Shown here piece by piece: positions 5,858 through 37,380 of a stretch of DNA of 64,000 bases. Made by a program: the position numbers and the translations under genes. How positions within the stretch are numbered: the first letter of the stretch is position 1; each line of letters begins with the position of its first letter. This stretch comes from an uncultured Aquimarina sp. (GTDB lineage Bacteria; Bacteroidota; Bacteroidia; Flavobacteriales; Flavobacteriaceae): NCBI GenBank assembly GCA_947498595.1, contig CANMKX010000021.1:9594-73593 (forward strand). Direction: 5' to 3'. Below the pieces are notes generated by a model that had not been told where the DNA came from, ran no database searches, and saw only the letters and a program-made list of their open reading frames with translations.

Positions 5858-5933
5858 AAGAAGAATCCTAAAAACGAATTGTAAATTCAATATTTGTTTA
5901 TTAAAAAACAATGATGAATTTACAATTCGCTCT

Positions 5934-7765: not shown

Positions 7766-7808
7766 TTCACAAAATTACTAATGTTATCGACTGAGCCCAA
7801 TTAAATTG

Positions 7809-7856
7809 ATGAACCCTTTCTTTTTTGATACAAACATTGATCTTTTTATCACAAAC
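7809..7856. promoter_or_regulatory. Putative LytTR-binding direct repeats
   Basis: ATGAAC (7809), ACAAAC (7830), ACAAAC (7851) at exact 21-bp spacing between the kinase and the divergent ABC operon. Confidence 0.45.
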
Positions 7857-7971
7857 TCAAGTAGCGTTATTTTTTATAGCATATATCCCCAATAACTGTT
7901 GGTAGAACATTCTTATTATAACACATCAAGGTTTCAATTTAGATTCGTCTTCAAGTCTAAAAATAGAATTT

Positions 7972-8862
7972 ATGAATACTTTACAGATAGAAAACATTAC
8001 AAAGACATATCCCAATGGAGTTCATGCTCTTAGCAACGTTTCATTAAAAATAAACAATGGATTATTTGGTTTATTAGGTCCTAACGGAGCAGGAAAGTCA
8101 TCTTTGATGCGAACGATTGCATGTTTACAAGAACCTAGCAAAGGTGCCATTACCTTTAACGATGTGAATATTCTTCAAAATCCCCAAAAGCTTCGTTCAT
8201 CTTTGGGATATCTACCTCAGGAATTTGGCGTATACCCCAAAATATCAGCATATAAATTATTGGATCATTTAGCCATTTTAAAAGGAATCATTCACAAAAA
8301 AGATAGAAAAACACAAGTGGAAGCTTTATTGGCACAGACAAATTTATACCAACATAGGAAAAAATCAGTATACAATTTTTCAGGAGGAATGAAACAACGT
8401 TTCGGAATTGCACAGGCATTGTTAGGAAATCCGCAATTAATTATTGTTGATGAACCTACAGCTGGATTAGATCCCGAAGAGCGAAATCGCTTTTTAAATT
8501 TATTAAGCGAGATAGGGGAGAACGTAATTGTTATTTTATCTACACATATCGTAGACGATGTAAGTGATTTATGCAAGCAAATGGCAATATTATCCAAAGG
8601 AGAAATCATCGCACAAGGAAAACCATCTGCTTTAATAAAAAGTTTAGAAGGAAAAATTTGGACCAAAAAAATTTCTAAAAATAATTTGATCTCGCATAAA
8701 AAAGCTTTTAATATTATTTCAACAAAACTGGTTGCTGGCATGACACAAATTAGAGTGATTGCAAAAAACCAACCCGAAGCCAGTTTTAAAGCTATAGCTC
8801 CTAATCTAGAAGATTACTATTTCTCAAGTATTCAACAAGCATCAATCAACAAAACACTATAA
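7972..8862 (+). CDS. ABC transporter ATP-binding protein
   Basis: GPNGAGKS Walker A, FSGGMKQR signature, IVDEP Walker B. Confidence 0.95.
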   Translation: MNTLQIENITKTYPNGVHALSNVSLKINNGLFGLLGPNGAGKSSLMRTIACLQEPSKGAITFNDVNILQNPQKLRSSLGYLPQEFGVYPKISAYKLLDHLAILKGIIHKKDRKTQVEALLAQTNLYQHRKKSVYNFSGGMKQRFGIAQALLGNPQLIIVDEPTAGLDPEERNRFLNLLSEIGENVIVILSTHIVDDVSDLCKQMAILSKGEIIAQGKPSALIKSLEGKIWTKKISKNNLISHKKAFNIISTKLVAGMTQIRVIAKNQPEASFKAIAPNLEDYYFSSIQQASINKTL

Positions 8863-8865
8863 AAT

Positions 8866-11800: not shown

Positions 11801-12423
11801 ATAATCGGTATTTTAATGGTAGAGCACATGCAGCCTCCAATGAAGTTCCTATGTATAAGGTAGATGGGCAAAGTTATATATCATACGGAAAAAGTTACAT
11901 TATTATGCAAGCTGTTAAAGAATTGATAGGCGAAGAAAAACTAAATATCGCATTACACGAACTTATTTTAAAGCATCAAAATGATTCTACTCCAAAAGTA
12001 CATTCGATTCATTTTCTTGATGAGTTGTACAAAGTTACTCCAAAAGAACATCATCAATTAATTGATGATTGGTTTAAACGAATGTTCATATACGAGTTAG
12101 AGTTAACTGCATATACTTATCAAAAACTAGCTGATGGCACTTATCAAATTAGTATTACAGTGAAATCAAATAGAAATGAAATAATTGAAAATGGACAAAT
12201 CAAAAAAGCTACCATAAACGAACCTATAACTATTGGAATATTTAGCGAGCATCCAAGTAATATAAAAGATGAGCATTCAATTATACATTTAGAAAAATAT
12301 GAGTTTACAAAGGAAATGAATACTTATAAAATTATTACAACAGAATTACCTACATATATAAGTATTGATCCATTTGGAACACGCTTGGAAGAAAACAGAG
12401 AAAATAATATAATTAAACTATAA
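8866..12423 (+). CDS. ABC-2 type permease fused to M1-family aminopeptidase
   Basis: About 590 aa of TM segments, then HEVAHQWWG...EGFAKY (HExxH-18-E). Confidence 0.88.
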   Translation: MVKQLIQFEFYYQCRQRAFLLLSLLFLMLGYFCGQQGFALDQVHFNSEYQIIFYTSLFTLGAVFIIMFFANNGVLRDRRYQMEAIMYSTSMSKITFFGIRFLGVFISSLLAFTPFILGYITGIALTDLDPSRLSHFSIFPYLRAWLFFVVPNILLCSSLLFAISLLAKNAIATYIGAIFIYMLYMISSMFLNSPLLAQSVPASPETMSFAAIMDPLGIAAFYEQTHYWTPAQKNSEHLAFSGLFMWNRILWISISLLINGISYQLFSFRKLQQKTKKKIGKLSNTSTVSNYRPINPVISIKSQCIALFSLLTIELKYVFKNIPFIAIMLMWLVIITTEFYNNIYNGGAYNDSIYPFTNLLIDLMVTPMTTLSIILIIFYSGELLWKERSFNFNYIIDATPVYNSTLFISKSIALLLLPLVLITIGIFTAIFFQLLNGSVTIDLWQYIALYYFYGLKICLYAIIAICIQSFVSNKYLGMGITGLVIFGSLISYRFGIEHPLLTLGAIPKPNYTDMNGFSKDYIQYSHLISYWISGAGVAIIFAFKTWQRGINKSILYKLKQIRSNWKLWQYINLASCVLVFIVMGSMVFYNTNIVTNYTTIKSTTNDRETYERKFKKYETLKKLIPSKITTRVALFPKKDTYTIAANYTLKNNNETSIDSVLITERIPLKNITLENAVLTEYDSILGTYLFRFEEAVIPSQEINFKFSIQKELTGYETSRNIISNGSYITHRDFDPVLSYRKSIEIQDPFERKKRGLPELIKAENTDQHIMNKEFSMEKVTFETIISTDIEQTAITTGNLIRKWEQGNRSFYEYKTKHPILPSIAYFSAKYKKKTANFEGIRIEQYYDKKHDYNIATIEKSTQQALEYCIQNFGKYHDDHIRIAEIPAHWQFGGFAHPGVISMVEDRLYLTDLSNDPAFNLVAKRTIHEVAHQWWGHILSAKPIAGGSLLVEGFAKYTEGVVMEKHYGKGALWQLSQTANNRYFNGRAHAASNEVPMYKVDGQSYISYGKSYIIMQAVKELIGEEKLNIALHELILKHQNDSTPKVHSIHFLDELYKVTPKEHHQLIDDWFKRMFIYELELTAYTYQKLADGTYQISITVKSNRNEIIENGQIKKATINEPITIGIFSEHPSNIKDEHSIIHLEKYEFTKEMNTYKIITTELPTYISIDPFGTRLEENRENNIIKL

Positions 12424-12446
12424 AGAGAGTCAATCATAAATAAAAG

Positions 12447-12501
12447 CATCAAAATTCACTTAGAATTGATTTTGCATATCAAATTTAGATGAATTTTGAT
12501 G
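12447..12501. terminator. Long imperfect hairpin downstream of the ABC/M1 operon
   Basis: CATCAAAATTCA...TGAATTTTGATG with further inner pairing. Confidence 0.45.
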
Positions 12502-12778
12502 TTTATAATAGTATAAACAGAAATCCTTATAATTTTTAAATCAAAAAACAACATTCACATCATTCGTTAAAAACAAATAATGTGTTGATATATCTAATAA
12601 AAAACACATCTAAATTCATATATTCTCAATAAAAAGAAATAATTAGTGGTTTTATGATAATCAAACAACTTCCTAAACTCTCTGAGAATCGCTTATATTT
12701 ATTTTAGTGATCCATTGTACAGAATATTCTCTATAAAACGCATTACAAACAAATTCAAAAGAGGTTGTTTTAAATTCT

Positions 12779-12806
12779 ATTTTACATAATATTAATTATA
12801 GTACAA
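12779..12806 (-). other. Probable chromosomal dif (XerCD) site
   Basis: Minus strand TTGTACTATAA-TTAATA-TTATGTAAAAT has the 11-6-11 dif layout (cf. E. coli GGTGCGCATAA-TGTATA-TTATGTTAAAT). It is intergenic, and most genes to its right are on the minus strand. Confidence 0.7.
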
Positions 12807-12845
12807 ATTATATCATATACCAGCTTTATAAGAATAATCCGTATT

Positions 12846-12874
12846 TGTAGCTATAATTCTCTATTATGTAAAAT
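12846..12874 (+). other. dif-like site with 7-bp spacer, inverted relative to dif
   Basis: TGTAGCTATAA-TTCTCTA-TTATGTAAAAT; XerD-type arm identical to that of 12779-12806. Confidence 0.6.
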
Positions 12875-13024
12875 ATCCCAGAATGTTCTCGTTTCTTAAT
12901 CATATATAGTATTTGGGTCATTAAGCATGCGTGTTTTGGCTTTTCGTTTAAACTGAATATTCTGTACAATCGTTCATAATTTTTCAAATGCGCGATTCTC
13001 AAGAAACATTCTAACTTAAAAATT

Positions 13025-13053
13025 TGTAGCTATAATTAGCCATTATGTAAAAT
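13025..13053 (+). other. Second dif-like site with 7-bp spacer
   Basis: TGTAGCTATAA-TTAGCCA-TTATGTAAAAT; both arms identical to 12846-12874, spacer differs. Confidence 0.6.
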
Positions 13054-13239
13054 TGCCTCTTGCCAAAATTGCTCGTATTGTTTTTTGTAAATAATTATGC
13101 TAAGCAGTAATTTTTCCAAACACAATTTACCAACGCTTTCCAGCCGCACAAAAAGCTTACATTTCGTTTTAAATTAAATTTTCGTTGAATATGGAATTCT
13201 CGTTGTAATTTTTTTCAGGAGCTTTTCGTTAAACTATAC

Positions 13240-21248: not shown

Positions 21249-21539
21249 CTATGAATTCTTTTCATAATCCATACTTTGGTTCAATACACGAAGAATTAAA
21301 ATACCTATATCCGTGACTAAATAAAAAATAGTATGAGATTTATACGAAAATCTTTTTAAAGATAGAATAAATTCAGATGCATCACGACCAAGTGTAGCAT
21401 TATCAGCTAATACTTGAAAAAGAGTATGCATTCCTGATAAATATGTTTTGGCTTGTTTTAATCCAAATGTTTCAATGCCATATTCATACATTTTGGCAAG
21501 ATCAATTTCAGCTTTTCTTGATAATTTATAATTGGTCAT
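21249..21539 (-). CDS. parE: ParE/RelE family toxin (likely start MTNYKLS at 21539)
   Basis: YKLSRKAEIDL...FGLKQAKTY...SHTIFY...ILILRVLNQSMD pattern. Confidence 0.88.
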   Translation of the reverse strand: MTNYKLSRKAEIDLAKMYEYGIETFGLKQAKTYLSGMHTLFQVLADNATLGRDASEFILSLKRFSYKSHTIFYLVTDIGILILRVLNQSMDYEKNS

Positions 21540-21783
21540 CTGCTCGCATTCGGTCTTCAACTTCCTTCATAATATCTAGAACGGATTTATCACTAACACC
21601 ACTTTCCATACCTTCAGTTATAGCTACTTTAAGTACTAAAAATTTAGCATTTTTTAGTTGATCTCGTCTTACGAGATCACGAAGATACTCACTATCATTA
21701 GTAAACTCTCCTGCTGTGATTCGTGACTTTATCCATTTATCTTGCTTTTCTGTAAATGTTATTGTTTTTCTAATTGTAGACAT
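21526..21783 (-). CDS. parD: ParD (ribbon-helix-helix) antitoxin
   Basis: RKTITFT...G.FTNDSEYLRDLVR...AITEGMESG; overlaps parE. Confidence 0.88.
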   Translation of the reverse strand: MSTIRKTITFTEKQDKWIKSRITAGEFTNDSEYLRDLVRRDQLKNAKFLVLKVAITEGMESGVSDKSVLDIMKEVEDRMRADDQL

Positions 21784-22271: not shown

Positions 22272-24131
22272 CTACATCTGAGTAAGTAGCTTAGAACAAT
22301 TCTGCCTAAGTGCTAAAGCATTATTATCTGCATCACTAAAAAATGCAAATTTATCGGTATATCCTTGATCTGAGGTATTAGATATAATTTCAGAACACTC
22401 TACATCGTGGTCTTTTAAAAATGTTATCATTTTTTCTATATTTTCAACCACAAGTGTTGGTATTGTTCCTATACCATTTGTATTCTCTTTAAAAGGTTCT
22501 TTTATATCATTATACAACCCAATTGCTGTAGTTACACCCATATTATTAAATAATAACTGAACGTATGGTACCGCTTTAGGTTGTTCTTTTTTTGTAATAG
22601 TATAACGTTCATCTATTTTTCCACCCAAGATGTTACAATAGAAGTTGATAGATTTACGCATATCGCTTACTGAAACTTTTAGGACCATACCTTGATAATT
22701 GGTATTTGCTCCTTCCATATTTTCATTATTTTTTTCGTTATTATTATTTTTCTTGTCATTTGGAATACCTCCAAAAATATTAGATAGAATCACATCCTTA
22801 ACCTCAACTGCTTCTAAATACTTTTTGTCATTACCTGCGGCTACTATAATTGGCTTTTCAGAATCACTTACATTAGTTCTTCCGTGAGACCCTTTAATTA
22901 ATTCGGCTGTAAGAGGTATTACATCGAACAACACTCTAAATCCTATTTTTTTGAGTAAAAGCTTGGTTATTAACTTTAATTTCAGTCCTCTTATTTTAGT
23001 GTTTAAGAACATTTCAACAGGATCGTAACCTGGTTTTTTGTGTATATCTACTGTACGTGCAAAATCTGGCGCTTTTTTATCATCTAACCAATAATAATAT
23101 GTAAACCATACTTCTTCTTTTGCAACAACCATAAAATTGCCTGAGCGTTCATGCCAAAGTCCTCTTTTTTGTTGTTCTTGTTTATCTAACACCTCATCTA
23201 TATCTGTAATACTTTTTAATAAAGTCATGACTTTATCTTCAAAATGTGGTAAGCAATATATATGAGCAACTTGGTGATCTGCTACTGCAAATGCTTTGCT
23301 TGCTGCTGCGTCTAATAATTCTTTTCCATTTTCTACTCGAATATTTAGTAACTCTTGTTTTCTGAATATACGATTAAGATGAATCGGTTTAGACACCGAA
23401 GAAATACCATATTCAGAAAGTATTATTGGTGTTATATTTTTAGTCTCATAAAACGCAATCAAATCTTTTAAAAGACTATCTAAATCTTTAATATCCTTTT
23501 GAACTTCTTTTGAGTTGTAATCGTATTTCTGAAAACAATAATCTAAGTGTGGTAAATAGATAAGTTGTAAAGTTGGGTTATATTTATCGTGTACGTATTT
23601 TGAAGCATCGGCGATCCATTGGCTAGATTTTATTGTTGTTCTAGGTCCCCAAAAATCGAATAGAGGAAAAATACCAAGTTCTTTCTGTAATTCATCTCTA
23701 AGTGTACTTGGAGAACTATAACAGTCTGGCTTTTTTAATCCATTTGCCCAATATTGAGGTCTAGGCGTTACAGAGTAATCTACACTAGAATACATATTAT
23801 ACCACCAAAACATATTGGCACAGGTGAAGTTGGGATTTATATCACGAGCTTCGTCCCAAATATTTGGGACTTGTACTAGTTTATTAGATTGTTTCCAGAA
23901 TTGCACTTCCGATAACTCTTTATTGTACCATCCGTTACCAATTATCCCATGTTCGGCAGGTAGTTTCCCAGTAAGGTAGGTAGTTTGCATGCTACAGGTT
24001 ACAGCTGGCAACACTGGCTCTATTGTTGCTAATTGTTTGTCTTTAGAACTCCATTGAGAGATAAACAATGTTTTATCCTCTAATATTTTTGCAGTAAGTC
24101 CTACTACATTAATGACAACGGTTTGTTTCAT
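22272..24131 (-). CDS. eboF: EboF-like alkaline phosphatase/nucleotide pyrophosphatase fused to a C-terminal VOC (glyoxalase-like) domain
   Basis: VVINVVGL, PAVTCSMQ, YLPHLDY, DHQVAHIY, DIHKKPGYDP, KGSHGR; tail VSDMRKSINFY...FFSDADNN. Likely start MKQTVV at 24131 overlaps the eboE stop. Confidence 0.82.
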   Translation of the reverse strand: MKQTVVINVVGLTAKILEDKTLFISQWSSKDKQLATIEPVLPAVTCSMQTTYLTGKLPAEHGIIGNGWYNKELSEVQFWKQSNKLVQVPNIWDEARDINPNFTCANMFWWYNMYSSVDYSVTPRPQYWANGLKKPDCYSSPSTLRDELQKELGIFPLFDFWGPRTTIKSSQWIADASKYVHDKYNPTLQLIYLPHLDYCFQKYDYNSKEVQKDIKDLDSLLKDLIAFYETKNITPIILSEYGISSVSKPIHLNRIFRKQELLNIRVENGKELLDAAASKAFAVADHQVAHIYCLPHFEDKVMTLLKSITDIDEVLDKQEQQKRGLWHERSGNFMVVAKEEVWFTYYYWLDDKKAPDFARTVDIHKKPGYDPVEMFLNTKIRGLKLKLITKLLLKKIGFRVLFDVIPLTAELIKGSHGRTNVSDSEKPIIVAAGNDKKYLEAVEVKDVILSNIFGGIPNDKKNNNNEKNNENMEGANTNYQGMVLKVSVSDMRKSINFYCNILGGKIDERYTITKKEQPKAVPYVQLLFNNMGVTTAIGLYNDIKEPFKENTNGIGTIPTLVVENIEKMITFLKDHDVECSEIISNTSDQGYTDKFAFFSDADNNALALRQNCSKLLTQM

Positions 24132-25345
24132 ATTGTTTCGCCTATACTGTTTCTTACCCAATTAATTTCTCTAGTTACAGCATCTATTATATCTGTTTGC
24201 ATTTGATTTGGTAACACGTCCCATGTGTAGGTTTCAATTTCTAAATGGTCTGTAAAATTATTGGTTTTCCAAAATTGTAATGTTTCAATTATATCGTCTT
24301 GTGTCGATTGTAAATCTTGATATTCTGCCAAAAACACAGGAACATGATAATGCGTTCTTAACTCTTTAAAATTTGTTACATTCATAGCTTCAATTGCTGC
24401 ATCTAAATCTCTAAATTTTAAAGAGTTATTTTCACTCGTCTTAATAACCGCTTGATGCAAATAATTAGGTTCGCGAAAAGGTCTTAAATAGCTTTGTAAT
24501 TCTTCAATAGTGTTATTACTTTCTACATTACATTTTAAAGCAGCACTTATCTGTACTTTGCCTATTTTAATAGCATTATTCTTCATTTTCTGGATAACCT
24601 CTACTGGCTTTTCGTATGCTATTGAGAAATGACAAACATCGAAACATAACTGAATATGTTCCCTTATAGCATTGTCTGATTCATTTTCTGTACAGTTAGT
24701 GTTTTTCATTAATAACGGAACACCTAATTTTAAAAGGTAATCGTTATAAAAATGTAAAAACTCTTCCGAATTTTCAATAACCCCATCTGGTTCGGGTTCT
24801 ATATCTAAATGCATATTTTTCCCTGTCTGATTCTTTAAATCCATAAGGTGCTGCACAACATCAATTAAAAAATCACAGGCTTTTATTTTAGCATCTTCCA
24901 ACCTCTCTTCTGTTGCATACCAGTATTTATAAGATATTGGAGAGGTTGAAATCCCTCCTAATATGTGTTCAGGTACTAATGCTCCCAAAATATCAAATAA
25001 TAGTATGGTGTATTCCTTTCGCAAGTCGGTAGTCCAATCTGGCGTATGTACCTGGTCTTTAATAGTCTCTCCATGAAAATTCCCATAAGGAAAACCATTT
25101 ATAGTAAATACATAGACATTATTTAGTGTCATCCATTCTTTAAAGGCATGCAATTTTGACTTATCACTTAATTCAATAGCTGCTTGATAGGACAATCTTA
25201 AACCAATGCCAAAAGGTTCTTTTTCTGAAACTTTTTGTTTAATATTAAGTAGATACACTTTTAGGTTTTCGAATATTTCTACCCACGATTCGCCTGCATG
25301 AATATTTGTGCAATAACTTAAATGTCCCGATTTACCTATTCTCAT
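24128..25345 (-). CDS. eboE: EboE metabolite traffic protein (TIM barrel)
   Basis: LSYCTNIHAGE, NGFPYGNFH, KDQVHTPDW, EPEPDG, RTHYHVP, EIETYTW. Confidence 0.9.
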   Translation of the reverse strand: MRIGKSGHLSYCTNIHAGESWVEIFENLKVYLLNIKQKVSEKEPFGIGLRLSYQAAIELSDKSKLHAFKEWMTLNNVYVFTINGFPYGNFHGETIKDQVHTPDWTTDLRKEYTILLFDILGALVPEHILGGISTSPISYKYWYATEERLEDAKIKACDFLIDVVQHLMDLKNQTGKNMHLDIEPEPDGVIENSEEFLHFYNDYLLKLGVPLLMKNTNCTENESDNAIREHIQLCFDVCHFSIAYEKPVEVIQKMKNNAIKIGKVQISAALKCNVESNNTIEELQSYLRPFREPNYLHQAVIKTSENNSLKFRDLDAAIEAMNVTNFKELRTHYHVPVFLAEYQDLQSTQDDIIETLQFWKTNNFTDHLEIETYTWDVLPNQMQTDIIDAVTREINWVRNSIGETI

Positions 25346-26529
25346 GCTTTTTGCTTTTCTATGGTTTCAAATGTTTTAGCATAGTATACAGCTTCATTTA
25401 ATTTTTGGGTTTTCATGTCGTGGACTTCTTCTCCTTTACCTATTGCTTTTAATAGCATTATTGTTAATATGCCTCCCAAATGTTCTCTAAATTCTTCCAA
25501 ACCATTAATTAATTCTGAATTAATGGTATTGCCATTTTCAGTATCAAATAATAATGGATGGGTTAAACTAAAACCTAAGTTTTTAAAGCTATTTAAAATT
25601 CTTATCAAATCGTTTTCAGATAAATAACCTATTTTATGGGAATAGCAAGAATCTAAAACAATACCTATAGCTACTGCTTCTCCATGCGTTAAAGTATAAT
25701 CGGTAAGATATTCTAATTTATGCGCTGCCCAATGTCCGAAATCTAAAGGTCTTGAGGATCCTTGCTCGAAGGGATCACCACTGGTTCCTATATGTTCCGT
25801 ATGCAGTTCTGCACATCTAAAAATTAGAATTTCCATTGCTTTAAGATTACGATTATTCAATAATGCTATGTTATCTTCTATCCAGTAAAAAAATGATGCA
25901 TCTTTAATTAACGCTACTTTTATAGCTTCAGAAATTCCTGATCGCCAATCTCGGTCTGATAGTGTTGTTAAAAATGTGCTATCGTTTATAACGGCAAATG
26001 GTGGTTGAAATGCGCCAAGAAAGTTTTTCTTATTAAAAAGATTAATGGAGTTTTTAACGCCTACTCCCGAATCGTTTTGAGACAATACAGTAGTAGGAAT
26101 ACGTATTAATCTTACACCTCTATGTGCTATAGTACTTGCAAAACCGACCATATCTATAACAGCGCCTCCTCCAATAACTAAAACATAGGAATGTCTATCA
26201 ATTTTTTCATTGTTTAATAAAATGAGAACGTTTTCTACTGCTCCCCAATCATTCTTAATATTTTCGCCACCTGCTACTAATAAAGGCTCTCCTTTTAGTG
26301 CTACATTATGACAACATGTTTTAAAATAAGCTTGAAGATCAATAATTAGATTTGGATGATGTTGAAACATCCCTTCATCTAAAACAACAACAGCTTTAGA
26401 CATAGTATTGCTATGCGTAGCCGTTAACACCTCTGCTAATAACGAATTATTTTTATTAAAAATAGCTTTGGTAAATGAGATATTATAATTGAATTGAACT
26501 TGAAAATTTTGTTGTATAATTTTATTCAT
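25342..26529 (-). CDS. eboD: EboD sugar-phosphate cyclase (3-dehydroquinate synthase-like)
   Basis: GGENIKN, GGGAVID, PTTVLSQNDSGVGVKN, RPLDFGHWAAH; operon context. Confidence 0.85.
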   Translation of the reverse strand: MNKIIQQNFQVQFNYNISFTKAIFNKNNSLLAEVLTATHSNTMSKAVVVLDEGMFQHHPNLIIDLQAYFKTCCHNVALKGEPLLVAGGENIKNDWGAVENVLILLNNEKIDRHSYVLVIGGGAVIDMVGFASTIAHRGVRLIRIPTTVLSQNDSGVGVKNSINLFNKKNFLGAFQPPFAVINDSTFLTTLSDRDWRSGISEAIKVALIKDASFFYWIEDNIALLNNRNLKAMEILIFRCAELHTEHIGTSGDPFEQGSSRPLDFGHWAAHKLEYLTDYTLTHGEAVAIGIVLDSCYSHKIGYLSENDLIRILNSFKNLGFSLTHPLLFDTENGNTINSELINGLEEFREHLGGILTIMLLKAIGKGEEVHDMKTQKLNEAVYYAKTFETIEKQKA

Positions 26530-26584
26530 AAATAATGTATCCTAGATTAATGCGTCCACCAATTAGTGTGTTCATTCTTTAAAA

Positions 26585-27472
26585 TTAAGTAACAGCATAG
26601 TGTTTTGCTATTATTATAGATATTGGAAGCAAACAAATAAGCAAAAGGGCATAATACCCATTTGAAAAACCAGCGACATAAATGGCGTTTAGCGGAATTA
26701 GTGATAATACACCTATTTTTACTGCTTGTTGAATTTGTTTTGGGTTATTCTGTTTTATAGCTCTTATTTTTGCAAATAAATTGATACCAAACCAAAAGAG
26801 TAAAAAGGGAATAGTAATCCATACATTCAAATAATCATTCAGCATTAAAACAACAAAAAACAAGGCTACCAGAGTATCTAAAACAATGGCTTTAATAATT
26901 GAATTCTTATTATTACCATGTGCTTCTTTTTGTCCTACTAAAGTAATAGCGCCTACAAACGCTAAAGGCACAAAACCAATAAACCATAATTCTTGAATGG
27001 TACTGTTTAGTATACTCATACCCAACAATAAATTCACTGACCTGCATAGCCCCATATTTATTGGCCCTAAAGCAGCATAGTGTTTTGCATATTTATCGTA
27101 GCTTAATGCTAATACTGCAATTAAAGAGGCTAATAGCCCACTTAAAGTAGAGGCTAGAAATGCAGCAATAATGCTCATAGAAAATAGAATTATTCCAAAT
27201 AGAACAGCTTCATTCATTGAAATTTTACCAGTAGGCAAAACTCTCTCTGGTCTATTCAGTTTATCATCGTCATAATCGAAAATATCATTAAACACTATAC
27301 CTCCTGCGTATAAACCAATAGTAGCTACTATTAATAAAACCATAGCTTCTAATTTAGCAGATACTAATTCTTGAAAAAAAACACCAGCAATAGCAAATCC
27401 AGCAATAACATCTGAAATAGCTGTTAAAATATTAGCTGGCCTTGCCATTCTTAAAAAAGAACCAAATCTCAT
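26585..27472 (-). CDS. eboC: EboC UbiA-family prenyltransferase
   Basis: RPANILTAISD, NDIFDYDDD...RPERVLP, MGLCR. Confidence 0.88.
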   Translation of the reverse strand: MRFGSFLRMARPANILTAISDVIAGFAIAGVFFQELVSAKLEAMVLLIVATIGLYAGGIVFNDIFDYDDDKLNRPERVLPTGKISMNEAVLFGIILFSMSIIAAFLASTLSGLLASLIAVLALSYDKYAKHYAALGPINMGLCRSVNLLLGMSILNSTIQELWFIGFVPLAFVGAITLVGQKEAHGNNKNSIIKAIVLDTLVALFFVVLMLNDYLNVWITIPFLLFWFGINLFAKIRAIKQNNPKQIQQAVKIGVLSLIPLNAIYVAGFSNGYYALLLICLLPISIIIAKHYAVT

Positions 27473-27473
27473 T

Positions 27474-28379
27474 TTAGTTTTTAATTATATTGGAATACGT
27501 TTTTTTAACAAACTCCTGTCCTCTTAATACTGAATTACCGTTTAATAATTCTTTCTCTTCAATTGTAATCTCTTTTAGCCAATCTGCTTCATTAAAGTGT
27601 CCACTTTGTCCATAGACATCTAATGCATTTTTATAACAGGTAAGATGTATATCTTCTTTAGAAACGCCTCTTTCATTCATTAGTGATGCTGTTTTGGGTA
27701 CTGCTAAAGGATCACTCACGCCCCAATCTGCAGAACTGTCTACAATAATTCTTTCAGACCCATATTGCTTAACAATGTCTACCATTCTTTCATTACCCAT
27801 TTTTGTATTAGGGTAAATAGTAAATGCTGCCCAATAACCACGGTTTAAGACATCTTTTACGGTTTCTTCATTGTTATGATCTATAACCACCATAGATGGA
27901 GATACGCCATGCTCTTCTAAAACGTCCATACTTTTTATGGTTCCATTTTTTTTATCACGGTGTGGTGTATGTACCATTATAGGTAGCTTCAACTCTTTAG
28001 CTAATTCTATTTGTTGTCTAAAGTATTTATCTTCTGCTTTGGTTTGATCATCGTAACCAATTTCCCCAATAGCAACTACGCCTTCTTTAGAAGCGTATAA
28101 CGGTAATAAGTTCATGACTTGCTCCGCTAAAGCTTCGTTATTCGCTTCTTTAGAGTTTAAACCAATAGTACAGTAGTGTTTAATTCCAAACTGGGAAGCA
28201 CGAAACCGTTCCCAATTGACTAGGCTATTAAAATAGTCTTGAAAAGAACCAACTGAGGTTCTTGGTTGTCCCATCCAAAATGCGGGTTCTATAATGGCAA
28301 CTATTCTTGCTGCTCTCATAGCTTCATAATCGTCTGTTGTACGTGAAACCATGTGAATATGTGGATCTATATATTGCAT
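27474..28379 (-). CDS. eboB: EboB TatD-family hydrolase
   Basis: DPHIHMVSRTTDDY, EPAFW, GEIGYD, HTPHRDK, DHNNE. Confidence 0.88.
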   Translation of the reverse strand: MQYIDPHIHMVSRTTDDYEAMRAARIVAIIEPAFWMGQPRTSVGSFQDYFNSLVNWERFRASQFGIKHYCTIGLNSKEANNEALAEQVMNLLPLYASKEGVVAIGEIGYDDQTKAEDKYFRQQIELAKELKLPIMVHTPHRDKKNGTIKSMDVLEEHGVSPSMVVIDHNNEETVKDVLNRGYWAAFTIYPNTKMGNERMVDIVKQYGSERIIVDSSADWGVSDPLAVPKTASLMNERGVSKEDIHLTCYKNALDVYGQSGHFNEADWLKEITIEEKELLNGNSVLRGQEFVKKTYSNIIKN

Positions 28380-28393
28380 ATATTTAGTCTTTA

Positions 28394-29221
28394 TTAGTTA
28401 TTGTATTGTTTTCCTATGTCAACCCAAATGGTTTTATATTCTTGTGTATTTGGGTTTACGCCTTCTAAAGTTATTTCTGCTGCTCTACGTTCTAACTCGT
28501 TAGTAGAAGCTATAGCTTTTCTTAATGTTTCTTGCAGTTTAGGGTTATTATATCCAGACATTAGTTGCCATACTTCTGGAGACACTGTTCGCCCAGCAGA
28601 CCATCTCTCATGTATATAATCGTTGAGCACTAGTGCTAATTTTTGATTATTCCGTTCTAGAAGGTTGTATATTTTGTATAATGGGCGCCCCATAAAAATA
28701 GCTTTTAATACTAATTGATTCCAAGCCTCTTCCGATAAAAAATGAGCTGCATAGGGATTGTTTAATGCAATAGCATCAAAAACATCTGTAACGTTGGTTC
28801 GTACTCCTTCTTCTACAAGGTAACTAAAGTTTTCTGCATTTTCTAAAAAGAAAAGATTCTTATAAAAATCTACTTGTTCTTTAATACTACAGGTTTCAAA
28901 AAGTCTTTTTAATATTGCTATACTATTTCTCTTAGGTAAAATAACCATAAGTAATGCTCTACAAAGGGACTGTTTATTCCATTCGCCTTCAGAAAAAGAA
29001 GGATAATGTTCTATTAAATATTGTAATTCTTTAGAATCCCATTCTATTGTATCGTTTAATATGAAACGATGCACTAAACTATAGATGAGGATGAATTGGT
29101 TTCCCAACTCATCCTTTTCTATAAGTTGGCTCTTACTAGTTAGCCACTGGACTTCTTCATCTTTTAGTTTTTTTAAAACTAGCTCGTGTAATATAGTTTT
29201 GGATGCTGCTGCATTAGGCAT
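28394..29221 (-). CDS. eboA: EboA family protein
   Basis: GVRTN...FDAIALNNPY...WNQLVLKAIF...HERWSAGR. Confidence 0.88.
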   Translation of the reverse strand: MPNAAASKTILHELVLKKLKDEEVQWLTSKSQLIEKDELGNQFILIYSLVHRFILNDTIEWDSKELQYLIEHYPSFSEGEWNKQSLCRALLMVILPKRNSIAILKRLFETCSIKEQVDFYKNLFFLENAENFSYLVEEGVRTNVTDVFDAIALNNPYAAHFLSEEAWNQLVLKAIFMGRPLYKIYNLLERNNQKLALVLNDYIHERWSAGRTVSPEVWQLMSGYNNPKLQETLRKAIASTNELERRAAEITLEGVNPNTQEYKTIWVDIGKQYNN

Positions 29222-29250
29222 ATTTTAATATGTTTTAAAATCTTTACATT

Positions 29251-30384
29251 TTATCTTCCAGGCTTGTGCGACTTAAGCATTGTTTTCTCTTCCTTTGTTA
29301 AATCTTCATCTGTTACATATTCGAAACTAGGCCCGGCAACATATCCTGGATTATTAGGGTCTGGTGTTGTAAGTAACCTTAAAGCATATAATCTTATCGC
29401 AAACATTAAGCCCATAGCCTTATCTATGGTATCTGGCTTACCGTTAAATGTTATATGAAGGCTATTTAATAGACTAGTATAGTTATAATTAAAAAACTTG
29501 CTATTTGTATATGCTGGAGAGTCTACTGGATAATCGTTCATCTTAGGATTCTCTTTCATATTAGGAACTTTAGACGGGTCATAAGGTATATCTGCTCCAG
29601 AATACGAATAACCAACTTTAGTACTTGAGTCTTTTACTTTTACCAGTTTCTTCCCTTTATAGATTTCTTCAAAACGATAATAGTGTGCTGGTTCTGGTGC
29701 TGCTTCTCCTGGCCCTAAATCGTCTAGGTTAACAAATGGATCCATACTTGTTCCTTCCCCTTGATCAATAATAATATTTATGGCCTTTTCAGCAGAATCT
29801 AAATCATTAATTGCAAATAATTCTTGTTCTGGAAACCATTTCCCATTTGCCATTTGATAGCTAGGGTCTCCTGTAAAAATTGTATTACAATTTTCTTGAG
29901 CTCTCTCTTCTAAAGCTTTCATGTTAGCTATGATTTTATTGTAAAACTCACCAATTGTAATTTCTTTTTTCTCCTCGAACGCTGCGGTTCTCATCAGTTT
30001 AATATCGATAGGGTCTTCTGGCTTCTCTATTGCCATAAACTTATCTTTTATTAACTGTTTAGAAAACTTAGCTATTGGTACTATTAAGCCTTCTTCTACA
30101 CCTCCTGGTAAAGGTCCAGGGTATTCGGGTATAAAACCAGGTTTATTTAACACTGGGCTTCCTCCAATTGCATTTAATAAATTACAGGCTATAGATAAAT
30201 GCAACATTTCTTCTCCTACTACCGAACCTATTAGTTTTGAAATTTCATCATTTCCTGTATTGGTAAGAGTAAAGTTAGCTGTTAAATATGGTGGTATTGT
30301 TGCGTGTTCTAATTCTATTGCTTTTTGTACGGCATCTCTTAGAGATTCTATAGAGTTTATTTGTATATTTTTAAGTAAAATCAT
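29251..30384 (-). CDS. Ferritin-like domain protein (VioB/RebD C-terminal type)
   Basis: QKAIELEHATIPPYLTA, EEMLHLSIACNLLNAIGG, IIDQGEGT, HYYRF. Confidence 0.8.
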   Translation of the reverse strand: MILLKNIQINSIESLRDAVQKAIELEHATIPPYLTANFTLTNTGNDEISKLIGSVVGEEMLHLSIACNLLNAIGGSPVLNKPGFIPEYPGPLPGGVEEGLIVPIAKFSKQLIKDKFMAIEKPEDPIDIKLMRTAAFEEKKEITIGEFYNKIIANMKALEERAQENCNTIFTGDPSYQMANGKWFPEQELFAINDLDSAEKAINIIIDQGEGTSMDPFVNLDDLGPGEAAPEPAHYYRFEEIYKGKKLVKVKDSSTKVGYSYSGADIPYDPSKVPNMKENPKMNDYPVDSPAYTNSKFFNYNYTSLLNSLHITFNGKPDTIDKAMGLMFAIRLYALRLLTTPDPNNPGYVAGPSFEYVTDEDLTKEEKTMLKSHKPGR

Positions 30385-30429
30385 GATATTAATTATTTTT
30401 TAGTTGAATAGTCTTTTTTAAGTTTTAGC

Positions 30430-32169
30430 TTACGCTATTGTTTCTTTGGTTTCGCAGTCTATTACTCCCAAAATTCCATCCAGATAATTTAATATCATTT
30501 TTTGTTTGTCTCCAGATAAATCTCTGGTTGCAGGCATATAATTCGGATCTGTTTTCTCTTTACTAAATACAAATTTCAAAATTTTGGCATTATTATCTAC
30601 TACCTCTTGTTTTGCTAAATTAAATACTCCTTTAGACATTAACGGATAAAGGTTAGCATACTGTTGCATAGTAGGTTGAAGATCTTCCCACGTAGGGCAA
30701 TCTATTTTTTCTTGTTTTACACTATCGAAAACCAGAAGGCTAATAAAGTTATTTTGATTGCCACCTGAGAAAGATTGTCCTTCTAGATTATAGGTTAAAG
30801 CATAGATTTGTCCATCTATAAACTCTCTAGGATTGTCAGGATCTCCAGCTGTAATTTCTAAAACAGCTGTTCCATATTCATTTGTTACTACTTGAGAAGC
30901 GTTCTGTATTGCCGAAGTTGGTACGCCTGTTACTGGGACTGGGGGATCATCAAACATATATGGCGCTTGTTGAATCTCTATCGTTTTATTTGCAGCTATT
31001 TTTCCTAATTCCGTAGCATAAAAATTAACTGCGCACTGTTCTTTAGGGTTTAAACGGAAAACAAACTTATCTGCTATAGCATATTCAGCACTTTCATTAA
31101 ATACCTGCGTAACTGTCGGGTCTAGAGTAAGCGTATTTGGGTTACTAGCCTGATAATCTACAATAGTTAATGGATATTTATTAACTAAATCTAATTGTTC
31201 TTTAGATAAGTTAAATGTACAACTCCCCGATTGTTGCATGTACCATCCTGGAACTCTATAATTAATTTTCCCTATATAATCATATTCTGGGACTTCTGCT
31301 GTACCAATATTTATTGCTAAAGTTAAATTACGAGTCTCTACTACCTCAACTTTTCCATTAACCTTTCCAAACTGCAAGGCATTAGATAAATCCATTGTAA
31401 TAGTCTTTAAACTGTCGTCTACAACTGCGGTCGCATAATTACAATTAGAACCAACTGGGAACATTTGTCTCCCTAAAACGCAATGGTTTGGTTCTAAAGT
31501 AGAAGATGGCCCTATAGAACCTGCTAATCTACCAATAGTAAATTCTGCTGATGTATGATCTAAATTATAACGATCTACCGTGAATTGAATAGATAGCATA
31601 TCTTTGCTAGCATCTTTTAATTCTTGAAGATATCTTGAATTAGATTGTTCTATATTCCAATTTATATTTGTAATTACTGATTGATAAGATGCTGTTGCTT
31701 TTCCTGCTCCGCCTTTTATATCTGTCGACCTGTTAAGCCAAAGATTTGTAAACGCTGCCTCTTTATAATCGCCTGTCATTAAATCATTCCCATCGTCCAC
31801 AATTCTAACTTGCATTCCCCAAATTTCAGAAACTCCTTGTTGTTGAGAATCTAAATCTACTATTTTACCAGCAACTCTTCCATCTGCATCCATAACGCTC
31901 ATTCCTATAATAGCATCGTCTTCAGGATTGCTTGTTGTAGTACCATCTTGATAGGTTACACTAGTAACCACACAATCTATTAATCTAAAATTACCTGTTC
32001 CGTCTGGATTCCACCAGCCATTAGTTCCGGGATTACCAGGTAAATTATAATCTTGAAATTCGGGACGAAACGTCGCATTATTAAAATGATTTGGATCATT
32101 ATTTACCGTTGAGGGATCGGCTTGAAACTTCCCTGAAAAAGTAAGCCTTGGCGTGTTTAAATAAGACAT
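30430..32169 (-). CDS. Protein resembling the N-terminal part of VioB / chromopyrrolate synthase
   Basis: N-terminus MSYLNTPRLTFSG and C-terminal LYPLMS...FNLA...YMPATRDLS..K...L.YL match my recollection of VioB/RebD; not verified by alignment. Confidence 0.62.
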   Translation of the reverse strand: MSYLNTPRLTFSGKFQADPSTVNNDPNHFNNATFRPEFQDYNLPGNPGTNGWWNPDGTGNFRLIDCVVTSVTYQDGTTTSNPEDDAIIGMSVMDADGRVAGKIVDLDSQQQGVSEIWGMQVRIVDDGNDLMTGDYKEAAFTNLWLNRSTDIKGGAGKATASYQSVITNINWNIEQSNSRYLQELKDASKDMLSIQFTVDRYNLDHTSAEFTIGRLAGSIGPSSTLEPNHCVLGRQMFPVGSNCNYATAVVDDSLKTITMDLSNALQFGKVNGKVEVVETRNLTLAINIGTAEVPEYDYIGKINYRVPGWYMQQSGSCTFNLSKEQLDLVNKYPLTIVDYQASNPNTLTLDPTVTQVFNESAEYAIADKFVFRLNPKEQCAVNFYATELGKIAANKTIEIQQAPYMFDDPPVPVTGVPTSAIQNASQVVTNEYGTAVLEITAGDPDNPREFIDGQIYALTYNLEGQSFSGGNQNNFISLLVFDSVKQEKIDCPTWEDLQPTMQQYANLYPLMSKGVFNLAKQEVVDNNAKILKFVFSKEKTDPNYMPATRDLSGDKQKMILNYLDGILGVIDCETKETIA

Positions 32170-32413
32170 ATTTAAATTTTAGTTATATATTTAAGAGTAA
32201 GTTGGTTTTATAGTTCTATATGAAGTATGTAATTGAACTACTCTAATTTTATTGTTTTTCAAAACATAAAATTAGATATTACTGTATAATTAATTATGGG
32301 TATAAATACCTGTTTTTTTTATAAATCTACTAATTAAATACATTTTTTATCCGCTAAAAGCCATAATAAACGAGCATGCTATTTTAAAATGAAACAATAA
32401 CAGTAATGCTAAA

Positions 32414-32630
32414 CCATTGCATACACATTTCCACTTCACTCCTATCGACGCTTCGAGCAATGCGTATTCCATTATAGTAGTAGAAGAAACTTTTTAGAAA
32501 GAAAAAAAGAAGATTTGTCTTTGGGAAAATCCAACGTATCACTTAGTTTCTATATATAAAAGTCTACTATACTTTTATATATATTTGTACCAAAGCAAAA
32601 TAGCATAGCACAAAACATTGTTGCGCATTC
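32414..32630. repeat. Inter-module repeat R5
   Basis: Highly similar to R3 (CCTATCGACGCTTCGAGC, GAAGATTTGTCTTTGGGAAAATCCAACG); 13-bp-arm palindrome at 32551-32583; degenerate terminal site. Confidence 0.85.
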
Positions 32631-32964
32631 TATAAATAGGTTTGTCTTACTAGATGAGGCTATTTATAACTTAGATGATTCGCTGGCATTATTATCAATA
32701 ATATATCTTTCTATTTTCCATCCGCATCATCTCGCAGCTTATTATAATTGATTTGACGATCAATAATAATAACTCGTGTAAACATCCCATAGTAATTCTA
32801 TACTATTATTTTCCTCGCTAAAATCTTGCTTAAAAATTTCTTTACACTTGTTATATATAGAATTTCGAATAACTCTTTTTTCTTTGTCTTTGTTTTGAAA
32901 CAAAAAAATCAAGTTTACATACGGGCACAACGTTAATAAAATACACAAAAGTATGTTTTTAGTG

Positions 32965-33090
32965 AAGCAGCAAGTTGGCGTGTTAGAGAAACAATTAACG
33001 TAGCAGTCACTATATTTTAGGCGGTACAAAATCAAAAGTCAACTAGATTTTTGATTTTGTGAGCGAGCTGGTGTGTTGGCAGTTTACACA
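32965..33090. other. GC-richer structured segment with hairpin; possible transfer/replication-origin remnant
   Basis: ACAAAATCAAAA-GTCAACTAGAT-TTTTGATTTTGT (33026-33060) shares the AAAAGTC.ACTAGA.TTTT core with the R3 and R5 palindromes. Confidence 0.35.
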
Positions 33091-33207
33091 TTTTGTTCAA
33101 TCTAAGCTACTACCATTATCAAGTCGTATCATCTCATAGCTTTATAAAATTGTTTCTATCAATCAATTTTGTAAACTCGTCTAAAATATGCATGCTCATT
33201 TTCCAAC

Positions 33208-33286
33208 CGTATCAGCTCGCTGCTATACTAATTCCTTCACTGGAGTTATCACTATATCTTGTGTTTTAGTCAAAATTATATAAGGC
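33208..33286. repeat. Repeat block B, copy right of the ebo module
   Basis: TAATTCCTTCACTGGAGTTATCACTATATCTTGTGTTTTA versus TAATTCCTCCACTGGAGAAATCATTATATCTCGTGTTTTA at 22202. Confidence 0.7.
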
Positions 33287-33339
33287 TAACTCATTAAAAT
33301 AATTGAGAGAAGGGTTAATTGTAGTTATATTACAAACTA

Positions 33340-35603: not shown

Positions 35604-36638
35604 ATGTCATTAAAACTAAATGTCAATTTATTACGTAACCCATTTATATTTTGGCTTGTTGTTGGCTTACTATACTATGGCATTTTATCATATTGGAATC
35701 CTACTGAAGCTTTGTTTTTTGCTTTTCAATTTGCTCTTATGCAAGGAATAATAGTAGCGTTTAACACTAAATACTTGCTCAAGAAACTAGAATATGACTC
35801 TGTTAAATACAAAACTCTCTCAATATTATTATTAGTTATTTTCTCTGGTTTGTCTATGGTAATTATGGCCTTATCTATTAATTATTTATTGCCTCCTCGT
35901 CTATCAAGTCAAAATCAATCAGTTCCTATTTTATGGATTTTCTTTATGAATATTCTAGCTTTAGGTGTTCCATTATTCATAAGTACATTTTTTCATATTT
36001 TAAGAAAAGAACGAGAGTATCGTATGCAAATTCAAGATTTAGAAAAGTTGCAAAATGAAACTGAATTAAAGTTTTTAAAAAGTCAGATTAATCCGCATTT
36101 TCTATTTAATGCGTTAAATAATATATACACTATAAGTTATACAGGTGATGCATCGGCTCCAGAAAAAATATTAATATTGTCCGATATGCTTCGTTATGTT
36201 CTTTACGATTGTAAGAGTAAAAAAGTGTTAATTTCTCGTGAATTGGAATATGTAAAATCGTTTATAGAATTTCAACAATTAAAAACAGAGTTTCCACAGA
36301 ACATTAATTTTCAAATTGATGAAGTAAATGAATCAATACAAATTGCTCCTATGATAATAATTCCATTTATAGAAAATAGTTTTAAGCATAGTAAAATAGA
36401 CACCGATAAAAATGCTTGGGTAAGTGCATTTATTAAAGTTGACAACGATAATTTAGTTTTTCAAATTGAAAATACAATACCAAAAGTTTCTCCACAAAAT
36501 TGGTTAAGCTCTGAAGGTGGCATAGGATTAGAAAATGTAAAAAAAAGATTAGAACTTCTATATTCGCAGAAATACACTTTGAAAATTGTTTCTAATGCTA
36601 GTACTTATTATGTTAACTTAACCATCAATTTAAATTAA
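35604..36638 (+). CDS. LytS/YehU-type histidine kinase
   Basis: SQINPHFLFNALN, IENSFKHS, GGIGLENV. Confidence 0.9.
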   Translation: MSLKLNVNLLRNPFIFWLVVGLLYYGILSYWNPTEALFFAFQFALMQGIIVAFNTKYLLKKLEYDSVKYKTLSILLLVIFSGLSMVIMALSINYLLPPRLSSQNQSVPILWIFFMNILALGVPLFISTFFHILRKEREYRMQIQDLEKLQNETELKFLKSQINPHFLFNALNNIYTISYTGDASAPEKILILSDMLRYVLYDCKSKKVLISRELEYVKSFIEFQQLKTEFPQNINFQIDEVNESIQIAPMIIIPFIENSFKHSKIDTDKNAWVSAFIKVDNDNLVFQIENTIPKVSPQNWLSSEGGIGLENVKKRLELLYSQKYTLKIVSNASTYYVNLTINLN

Positions 36639-36639
36639 T

Positions 36640-37380
36640 ATGGAACGTATCAATTGCATTATTATAGATGATGAATTTTTAGCTCGTAAGCTATTAACTG
36701 ATTACATAGAAAAATTACCTCAGATTCATTTACTGAAAAGTTTTGACAATGCTTTAAATGCTCTTGATTATGTTAATAGAAATGTTATTGATTTGATTTT
36801 TTGCGACATCCAAATGCCTGATTTAACCGGAATTGATTTTATAAAAAGTTTGCAACAAAAACCTGTTATTATTTTTACAACTGCATATTCTGAATTTGCG
36901 ATTCAAGGTTACGAACTAGATGTCACCGAATATTTACTAAAACCTTTTTCTTTACCTAGATTTATAAAAGCCGTTAATAAAGCTACTGAAATTATACGTT
37001 TAAAGCGTATAGCTCATAAAAATTTAAATTTTGAGAATACTTCAATTGAAAAAGTTTCAAATAAAGAAAATAAAAGCTTTATGCTTATTAAATCTGATCG
37101 CAAAATCCATAAAGTATTTTATGATAGTATTCTGTTTATTGAAGGTGCACTTGAATATGTAAATTTTTTCACCAAAGAAAAACGTATTTTAGGCCTTTAT
37201 TCTTTAAAAGAACTAGAAGATTTGCTTCCCAACTCTAATTTCATACGAGTACATAAATCTTATATTATAGCACTTAAAGAGATTAGTGAAGTTGATGGAA
37301 ATCAAATAATTATTCAAGAACACAAAATCCCGATAGGGAAAAGTCACAAAACAGAATTTCTTAAACGTTTTGGGGTATAA
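36640..37380 (+). CDS. LytTR response regulator
   Basis: IDDEFLA, DIQMP, YLLKP, FIRVHKSY. Confidence 0.92.
   Translation: MERINCIIIDDEFLARKLLTDYIEKLPQIHLLKSFDNALNALDYVNRNVIDLIFCDIQMPDLTGIDFIKSLQQKPVIIFTTAYSEFAIQGYELDVTEYLLKPFSLPRFIKAVNKATEIIRLKRIAHKNLNFENTSIEKVSNKENKSFMLIKSDRKIHKVFYDSILFIEGALEYVNFFTKEKRILGLYSLKELEDLLPNSNFIRVHKSYIIALKEISEVDGNQIIIQEHKIPIGKSHKTEFLKRFGV

Follow-up and report, generated by a model that had tools for sequence, protein, structure and literature searches.

A split VioB-like gene pair at the head of a complete eboABCDEF operon in an uncultured Aquimarina

The subject of this analysis is a stretch of 64,000 nucleotides from an uncultured Aquimarina sp., called the window below, in which a VioB-like protein divided between two genes stands directly ahead of a set of ebo genes. 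All coordinates are positions in this window, which is AT-rich (about 30% G+C). Between positions 32169 and 22272, on the minus strand, lie eight open reading frames (ORFs) in a single orientation. Spacers of 45, 29, 14, 1 and 55 bp separate the first six, and the last three overlap by 4 bp at both junctions; the overlap between eboE and eboF presupposes the ATG at 24131 as the eboF start. A preliminary description of the window had given eight co-oriented genes with gaps under 60 bp or overlaps, and the reading frames lie exactly where it placed them. A scan for terminators inside the operon found no convincing one. Judged from the spacing, the pair and eboA to eboF probably form one eight-gene transcription unit.

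Genes of the operon and their relation to VioB

The first gene (30430-32169) encodes a protein of 579 amino acids, the N-part of the pair. The second (29251-30384) encodes a ferritin-like protein of 377 amino acids, the C-part, which is the putative di-iron catalytic subunit. Behind them stands a complete ebo set, as the preliminary description had recognised. All six genes are present in one orientation and in the order A-B-C-D-E-F, which is canonical for Bacteroidota. The match of eboA (28394-29221) to the EboA domain model NF035938 exceeds that model's own cut-off (148.8 bits against 50). Two further genes exceed equivalog cut-offs of 250 bits, namely eboC for a UbiA-like prenyltransferase (26585-27472; NF035940, 326 bits) and eboE for a TIM-barrel protein (24128-25345; NF035939, 471 bits). 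The other three are assigned by Pfam and NCBIfam matches together with 81-98% identity to the ebo operons of two related loci: L086, the closest relative of the window operon, and L001, from an uncultured Flavobacteriaceae. These three are eboB for a TatD-like hydrolase (27474-28379; PF01026, E 2e-19; 97-98% identity to EboB of L086 and L001), eboD for a dehydroquinate synthase (DHQS)-like sugar-phosphate cyclase (25342-26529; NF004852, 554 bits; PF01761 and PF24621), and eboF for a protein of the phosphodiesterase/alkaline-phosphatase family (22272-24131; PF01663, E 2.6e-56).

The mechanically called eboF ORF of 629 amino acids starts at the TTG at 24161 and overlaps eboE by 34 nt. The alternative ATG at 24131 gives 619 amino acids and an ATGA overlap with the eboE stop codon, and agrees with the gene call of L086; it is the likely start. 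At its C-terminus EboF carries a VOC/glyoxalase-fold domain that had been missed in the otherwise correct inventory of eight genes. This domain (22311-22676, residues 496-617 of the 629-residue ORF) matches PF00903 with 33.6 bits (cut-off 20.6; E 5.9e-8) and is joined to the phosphodiesterase part by a linker rich in Asn and Lys.

Among 28 homologues of the VOC domain, no His or Glu is invariant. The invariant residues are K495, S497, S499, Y508, Y520, D552, N595, S597, D603, R619 and N621. Manual mapping onto GloA and methylmalonyl-CoA epimerase places V493 (first strand) and R619/Q620 (C-terminal) at the canonical metal-ligand positions. Because these positions are substituted and no His or Glu is invariant, the domain is unlikely to be a metal-dependent dioxygenase. 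Its polar pocket (K495, S497, S499, D552, N595, S597, D603, R619 and N621) more likely has a role in binding or presenting a molecule, or supports metal-free catalysis.

The pair at the head of the operon is related to VioB, StaD and RebD. These are described as haem enzymes, and they synthesise the iminophenyl-pyruvate dimer or chromopyrrolic acid. To our knowledge they are the only characterised members of their fold, for which we know of no solved structure. For comparison, true VioBs were taken from Oxalobacteraceae genomes, where they lie between vioA-like and vioC-like ORFs and score 1,833-1,908 bits against the NCBIfam VioB model TIGR04492.

The 579-residue protein has no Pfam domain. 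Its match to TIGR04492 is local, with residues 484-566 aligned to positions 501-582 of the profile (E 4.5e-7). A BLASTP comparison with one true VioB aligns nearly the same region (481-563 with 501-582, E 2e-8) and also the N-terminus (1-92 with 1-118, E 0.005). Likewise, a profile of 39 sequences of its family is aligned by hhalign over residues 191-573 with VioB 243-591 (probability 96.7%, E 4e-10). Since the match of the N-part ends at VioB residue 591 and the ferritin-like domain of VioB occupies residues 615-836, the boundary between the two genes coincides with the inter-domain linker of VioB. Finally, a profile made from natural fusions of the two halves aligns with VioB over 591 columns that cover both halves (probability 99.5%, E 1.2e-22). 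By BLASTP, the profile alignments, the boundary at the linker, the existence of natural fusions and the match of the fused profile, homology to VioB and the split into two genes are established. The resemblance of the first gene to the N-terminal region of VioB/RebD, and of the second to its ferritin-like C-terminal domain in the order of the fused enzyme, had both been proposed in the preliminary description and are thus borne out.

Many residues that are invariant in the N-part family are also present in VioB. They include R8, F11, G13, N23, N24, H28, D85, D105, W144, R234 and Q454, as well as Y508-P509-x-M511 and M545-P546-x-T548-R549, the latter motif continuing as -x-L-S. An N-terminal motif, M-S-x-L-x-x-P-R-L-x-F-x-G...N-x-N...H, is likewise common to the family and VioB. 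The shared H28, Y504, Y508, M511 and M545, together with shared Arg and Lys residues, are compatible with haem b or with indole-3-pyruvate imine coupling and are not evidence for either.

AlphaFold2 models the 579-residue protein with confidence (predicted local distance difference test, pLDDT, 86.4; predicted template modelling score, pTM, 0.87) as a series of several beta-sandwich domains followed by helices at 486-578. A natural fusion of both halves gives a similar score (pLDDT 85.7, pTM 0.83) and a helical C-part. A Foldseek search with the N-part model found only generic Ig-like or macroglobulin arrays at template modelling (TM) scores of about 0.15, and a PDB sequence search with the protein found no match.

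Membership in VioB proper is a different matter, and it is not established. The 579-residue protein scores 28.1 bits against a TIGR04492 cut-off of 1,250, which places it outside that family; in a tree, VioB lies outside all members of the window protein's family, on a very long branch; and no L-tryptophan oxidase of the VioA type (VioA/RebO/StaO) was found in the window flanks or anywhere in the genome, nor does one recur across 80 loci that carry the pair. VioC, VioD and VioE are absent as well, so the earlier statement that neither a VioA/RebO-type oxidase nor VioE accompanies the pair stands. That the pair is an oxidative coupling enzyme linked to ebo stands for the homology and the linkage; the coupling activity itself is an analogy drawn from VioB, not a demonstrated activity, because the protein falls outside VioB proper.

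The 377-residue protein matches PF12902 over its full length (all 221 profile positions; 241.8 bits, cut-off 22.3; E 9.8e-72). Six of its residues, E26, E59xxH62, E120, E210 and H234, are 97-100% conserved over 71 ferritin-like sequences. All six have counterparts in a true VioB (P0122), namely E622, E682xxH685, E738, E816 and H829. This set of four Glu and two His would most likely furnish the ligands for a carboxylate-bridged di-iron site, and the protein would accordingly be predicted to bind metal. No discussion of a di-iron site in VioB, StaD or RebD was found in the literature searched. The conservation of the six residues raises the question whether these haem-type enzymes carry an overlooked di-iron centre.

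A sister family of VioB and its linkage to ebo

A phmmer search against 1.84 billion cluster representatives returned 1,318 clusters (50% identity) at E≤1e-3, with split and fused forms mixed. The genomic setting of the pair was surveyed in 80 loci from named genomes. In about 75 of them, spread over many phyla, the 579-residue gene and the ferritin-like gene are adjacent. Seven ORFs in this survey are natural fusions of the two, a form also taken by at least 549 proteins in databases that are about 900 amino acids long and carry no annotation beyond 'ferritin-like protein'. Because such fusions occur, the two halves are expected to work together. The split and fused proteins make up a large uncharacterised sister family of VioB.

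Some members of the family have had a history of their own. A Chloroflexota metagenome-assembled genome (MAG), L066, contains two tandem fused full-length members of about 1,068 amino acids (5898-9104 and 10001-13210), and L069 likewise has two copies, which points to paralogous expansion in some lineages. In two Pyrinomonadaceae MAGs (L002 and L029), acidobacterial copies of the 579-residue protein are nested in the Bacteroidota clade, as the nearest rows to the window protein in the tree. These MAGs keep the trio of the 579-residue gene, the ferritin-like gene and a VOC gene, apparently without ebo, and their position suggests that the trio alone was transferred between phyla. One Bacteroidota genome that lacks EboC contains a 101-residue N-terminal fragment of the family (G087:C145:2373-2666; 59% identity, with an in-frame TGA), probably the remnant of a pseudogene.

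The VOC domain behaves as a third component of the pair. Its type is found, in single copy, in eight of nine pair-bearing genomes and in none of 29 other ebo-positive Bacteroidota genomes, in a search that included a positive control. For this reason it is assigned to the VioB-like module rather than to ebo. Its position varies widely. Both the window and L001 have it fused to EboF. In the majority of loci from Bacteroidota and Pyrinomonadaceae, those that lack ebo among them, a gene of its own encodes it immediately behind the ferritin-like gene. In five Flavobacterium loci the separate gene lies between the ferritin-like gene and eboA, and in the loci L022, L023, L025, L026, L089 and L090 it follows eboF. 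Three Algoriphagus loci and one Pyrinomonadaceae locus have it fused to the ferritin-like protein. In a distant clade, a gene fusing an ABM domain to a VOC domain stands directly upstream of the pair in 13 loci. Since a domain specific to the pair is fused to EboF in the window, the module is physically tied to an ebo enzyme.

Linkage to ebo was scored as ebo genes within 10 kb, and about 21 of the 80 pair loci are linked in this sense. The background was a set of 401 genomes sampled evenly across the phylum Bacteroidota, in which EboC was scored above its cut-off; kinship among genomes was handled by genus-level counting and by the tree only. EboC occurs in 30 of these genomes and the 579-residue family in three, two of which have it adjoining ebo, the third having a fragment. 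All nine cultured Bacteroidota with an unlinked pair (six Algoriphagus, two Spirosomataceae and Flavicella sediminum) carry a bona fide EboC elsewhere in the genome, compared with 30 of 401 in the background. Counted by lineage, eight of 12 pair-bearing Bacteroidota lineages are ebo-positive against a genus-level background of 19 in 179 (10.6%; binomial p ~5e-6).

The maximum-likelihood tree requires at least six changes of the ebo-linked label, which appears in three separated clades: Bacteroidota; Cyanobacteria with Nitrospirillum; and Burkholderiaceae. The position of the pair differs between them. It heads eboABCDEF in Bacteroidota and follows ebo and the ABM-VOC gene in Burkholderiales, in Nostoc sp. 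NIES-4103 it is flanked by eboB and eboC, and in Symploca it is found inside the cluster. The linkage to ebo is real and far from random. The survey of co-occurrence that the preliminary description had proposed upholds the association itself. It does not make the pair a general partner of ebo, since only two of 30 ebo-positive genomes have it and most of the family occurs without ebo.

The locus has also been a site of allelic exchange. L086 resembles the window throughout, with all eight proteins 81-97% identical. L001 is different. From the 3' part of the ferritin-like gene to eboF (29902-22299) it is 92% identical to the window in nucleotide sequence; upstream of a breakpoint in the ferritin-like gene (29902-29998), over the rest of that gene and the 579-residue gene, identity is 71-74%, and the flanks do not match. 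At the protein level, the L001 pair is about 60% identical to that of the window and the ebo proteins are 86-98% identical. This mosaic indicates recombination between lineages, in which either the pair or the ebo block was exchanged. A third allele, in G335, has a pair that is 36% and 44% identical to the window pair, so that three pair alleles (window, L001 and G335) occupy one position ahead of eboABCDEF.

These findings bear on the possibility that the pair is functionally independent of ebo and that their adjacency is a historical accident of gene order. Most family members occur without ebo, most ebo clusters occur without the pair, and pair and ebo genes differ in their history between L001 and the window, all of which would be expected of a coincidence. 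An accident would nevertheless have had to recur in at least three deep clades and in varied gene orders, including an embedding inside the cluster. It would have to account as well for the excess of ebo-positive lineages over background, for divergent alleles kept at one position, and for a pair-specific VOC domain fused to EboF. Such independence is accordingly improbable.

Proposed function and its alternatives

Thallusin is a morphogen of the seaweed Ulva that is active at picomolar concentration. A preprint of May 2026 reports that this meroterpenoid is a product of the ebo genes, formed via saccharoquinoline; its evidence comes from gene deletion, isotope labelling and assays of EboC (10.64898/2026.05.21.724671). 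According to the same preprint, ebo genes are present in 27 of 27 thallusin producers, confirmed ones including Maribacter and Zobellia, and in none of eight non-producers, and the clusters occur in 3,304 of 124,295 genomes, a figure to be set beside the roughly 21 of 80 pair loci with ebo nearby. Thallusin is lost when eboB, C, E or F is deleted in Stieleria maiorica, L-aspartate is incorporated, and EboC farnesylates 6,7,8-trihydroxyquinaldate. Saccharoquinoline is the proposed precursor, and no enzyme is known for its oxidative ring opening to thallusin (10.64898/2026.05.21.724671). From the correlation of genotype and phenotype in the preprint, the window operon would be predicted to produce thallusin or saccharoquinoline. 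The preliminary description had seen ebo as an export system based on a prenyl-cyclitol and the whole as a candidate new pathway. The operon is as described; its function has to be revised in the light of the preprint, and the pathway is not wholly new. Neither the preprint nor its supplement mentions ferritin or VioB, and its main text names no VOC or glyoxalase gene; the 2016 ebo paper likewise leaves ferritin and VioB unmentioned.

Two candidates for the missing step are rejected. The pair is not the universal thallusin oxidase, because it is present in only two of 30 ebo-positive genomes. The VOC domain of EboF is unlikely to be the missing ring-cleaving dioxygenase, because it has no conserved His or Glu ligands and its type is absent from 29 other ebo-positive genomes.

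The reading preferred here, to which a probability of roughly 55% is given, is that the pair acts together with the VOC domain as an accessory oxidative module in the ebo pathway of thallusin and saccharoquinoline, where it yields a lineage-specific congener or speeds a late oxidative step. In this model, the 579-residue and 377-residue proteins would assemble into a heterodimer equivalent to the fused enzyme. The four Glu and two His of the ferritin-like subunit would bind two iron atoms and activate O2. The N-part and its VOC partner would shape or deliver the substrate, the VOC domain binding or presenting a small molecule. The module would then oxidise an electron-rich ebo intermediate, a hydroxyquinoline or meroterpenoid of the trihydroxyquinaldate or saccharoquinoline type. 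The product might be a coupled, hydroxylated or ring-modified congener, or the module might simply assist a late oxidative step.

Several findings weigh against this reading. No ebo genes accompany the pair in 59 of the 80 loci, and a true EboC is absent from all 22 distant-clade genomes from outside Bacteroidota that were tested. Since most family members are without ebo genes, an ebo product is not an intrinsic requirement of the enzyme. EboC is also missing from four MAGs placed within or next to the clade of the window, one of them from Pyrinomonadaceae. Conversely, 28 of the 30 ebo-positive Bacteroidota genomes lack the pair, and confirmed thallusin producers are among such groups. Among ebo clusters the pair is thus an uncommon accessory, and it is dispensable for thallusin. 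Even the VOC domain is dispensable, as L086 has none at all. With regard to the chemistry, Foldseek found no solved structure of a characterised enzyme that resembles either the N-part or the ferritin-like part, so that no specific reaction is supported. The description of VioB as a haem enzyme, moreover, leaves haem, di-iron or both as candidates for the metal site.

A second cluster with ebo genes brings tryptophan into view. According to a 2026 review, the EDB cluster of Pseudomonas fluorescens NZI7 consists of six ebo homologues and three genes of unknown function (PMC12904256). When it was expressed in E. coli, tryptophol, indol-3-yl-oxoacetamide, indole-3-aldehyde and novel indole dimers appeared; reviewers doubted that these are direct products of the cluster (PMC12904256). 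Three Burkholderiales loci (L063, L078 and L079) contain exactly six ebo genes, an ABM-VOC gene, a homologue of the 579-residue protein and a ferritin-like gene. By their resemblance in number to this gene content, the three extra EDB genes may be the VioB-like module. A homology search from the Massilia orthologue found no Pseudomonas among the best 120 matches.

One alternative follows from this resemblance. The pair may have kept the ancestral substrate class of VioB and oxidise or couple a tryptophan-derived indole-3-pyruvate imine or enamine, with the ebo product as a mere helper (a cofactor, carrier or co-substrate). Homology to VioB fits such a role, and a VioB-like enzyme among the three EDB genes, with the gene content of the Burkholderiales loci as precedent, would explain the indole dimers. 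In cyanobacteria, ebo is tied to scytonemin, a dimer derived from tryptophan and tyrosine, and family members without ebo would fit a common primary metabolite as substrate. Set against these points are the VioA-type oxidase absent from the genome, the VioB score far under the family cut-off, the lack of any tryptophan-metabolism gene recurring beside the pair, and the absence of Pseudomonas from those best 120 matches. A tryptophan-derived substrate is regarded as unlikely.

The accessory module acting on an ebo intermediate can also be given a bolder form, which is likewise doubtful. Here the module would be the enzyme for the end-stage oxidation of ebo, either opening the ring of saccharoquinoline to give thallusin or making a new congener, and would at the same time be identical with the three unknown genes of EDB. 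If so, a family of over 1,300 clusters would have its first assigned function, enzymes of the VioB fold would gain a second type of reaction, and the oxidised and dimeric products of the EDB cluster would be explained.

Another alternative is that the pair handles iron or its chelates. It would oxidise, release or recycle iron from ferric chelates of the thallusin type or from haem, and would stand near ebo since thallusin binds iron. The ferritin fold with a di-iron-type ligand set is compatible with this, and TonB-dependent receptor genes stand beside the pair in seven loci and an ABC ATPase in six. The ABM domain that is fused to VOC in the 13 loci mentioned above has what we take to be the IsdG haem-oxygenase fold. 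Metal-chelating properties of thallusin have also been noted (10.64898/2026.05.21.724671). Only a minority of loci, all from the distant clade, have neighbours of this kind, however, and the window is not among them. VioB, the nearest homologue that has been characterised, is a biosynthetic oxidase, and iron-storage proteins have nothing that corresponds to the large conserved N-part. A role in iron handling is given little credence.

What the locus reveals is a sister family far larger than VioB, StaD and RebD themselves, probably able to work as two subunits and repeatedly recruited to ebo. Under the preferred reading, the module is a testable candidate for lineage-specific oxidative tailoring, not a universal answer to the late step of thallusin synthesis. 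It would also offer a simple explanation for the indole dimers obtained on expression of EDB.

The surroundings of the operon may be described briefly. Upstream, the unit is bounded by 1.17 kb of non-coding DNA (32170-33339) and then by a gene of the beta-lactamase family. This AT-rich leader is unusually long and presumably has a promoter or regulatory role. It contains no ORF of 150 amino acids or more, its sole listed ORF (32760-33035) being 91 amino acids long and without a Pfam match. No riboswitch or other RNA element was found in it by an Rfam search at E≤1. A scan for sigma-70 promoters and terminators gave matches no commoner than in shuffled sequence, Bacteroidota promoters being outside the coverage of the scan. 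Directly downstream of eboF, on the same strand, lies a ParD antitoxin/ParE toxin pair (21249-21783). About 3.4 kb upstream of the operon, on the opposite strand, is a LytTR-type two-component system (35604-37380), which consists of a histidine kinase (His_kinase, PF06580) and a LytTR-domain response regulator and might regulate the operon.

Comparison with known systems

With ebo and EDB clusters the window shares the six ebo genes in canonical order. Typical Bacteroidota ebo operons, including those of groups with confirmed thallusin producers, differ from it in lacking both the pair and the VOC domain.

The sole solved structure that matches the ferritin-like subunit is PDB 3HL1, the ferritin-like protein CC_0557 from Caulobacter (phmmer E 2.6e-8; Foldseek target TM 0.74). 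It was also all that a Foldseek search with the model of the natural fusion matched. It was determined by structural genomics, its function is unknown and it carries no functional information. It is a stand-alone protein for which no N-part partner is known.

As regards the chemistry, the nearest parallel may be BoxB and PaaA, whose carboxylate-bridged di-iron site in a four-helix bundle directs O2 against an aromatic ring before the ring is opened. Their substrates are CoA thioesters and they depend on reductase partners, and the window pair is related to them by analogy only. For the VOC domain, a similar comparison can be made with metal-free VOC binding proteins such as those for bleomycin and mitomycin resistance, which have the same fold with the metal-ligand positions substituted. 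The domain in the window differs in being only weakly similar to any solved VOC protein, and its conserved pocket could support metal-free catalysis.

Within its own family, the pair can be compared with the fused proteins of about 900 amino acids that share PF12902, found in Chitinophaga, Mucilaginibacter, Undibacterium, Acidobacteriota and others. They are 36-45% identical to the N-part and have the same conserved residues. They are single polypeptides, however, and the seven fused ORFs among the 80 loci are all without ebo within 10 kb.

The closest characterised relatives are VioB, StaD and RebD. Homology to them is colinear over both halves, with the same N-terminal and YP-x-M/YMP-x-TR-x-LS motifs and the same set of four Glu and two His. 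The window pair is only about 20-28% identical to them, is accompanied by neither VioC/D/E nor an amino-acid oxidase, and stands in an ebo context. Each of these enzymes is one polypeptide of about 1,000 amino acids, whereas in the window the same arrangement is divided between two genes of 579 and 377 codons, 45 bp apart, with the order and the boundary of VioB.

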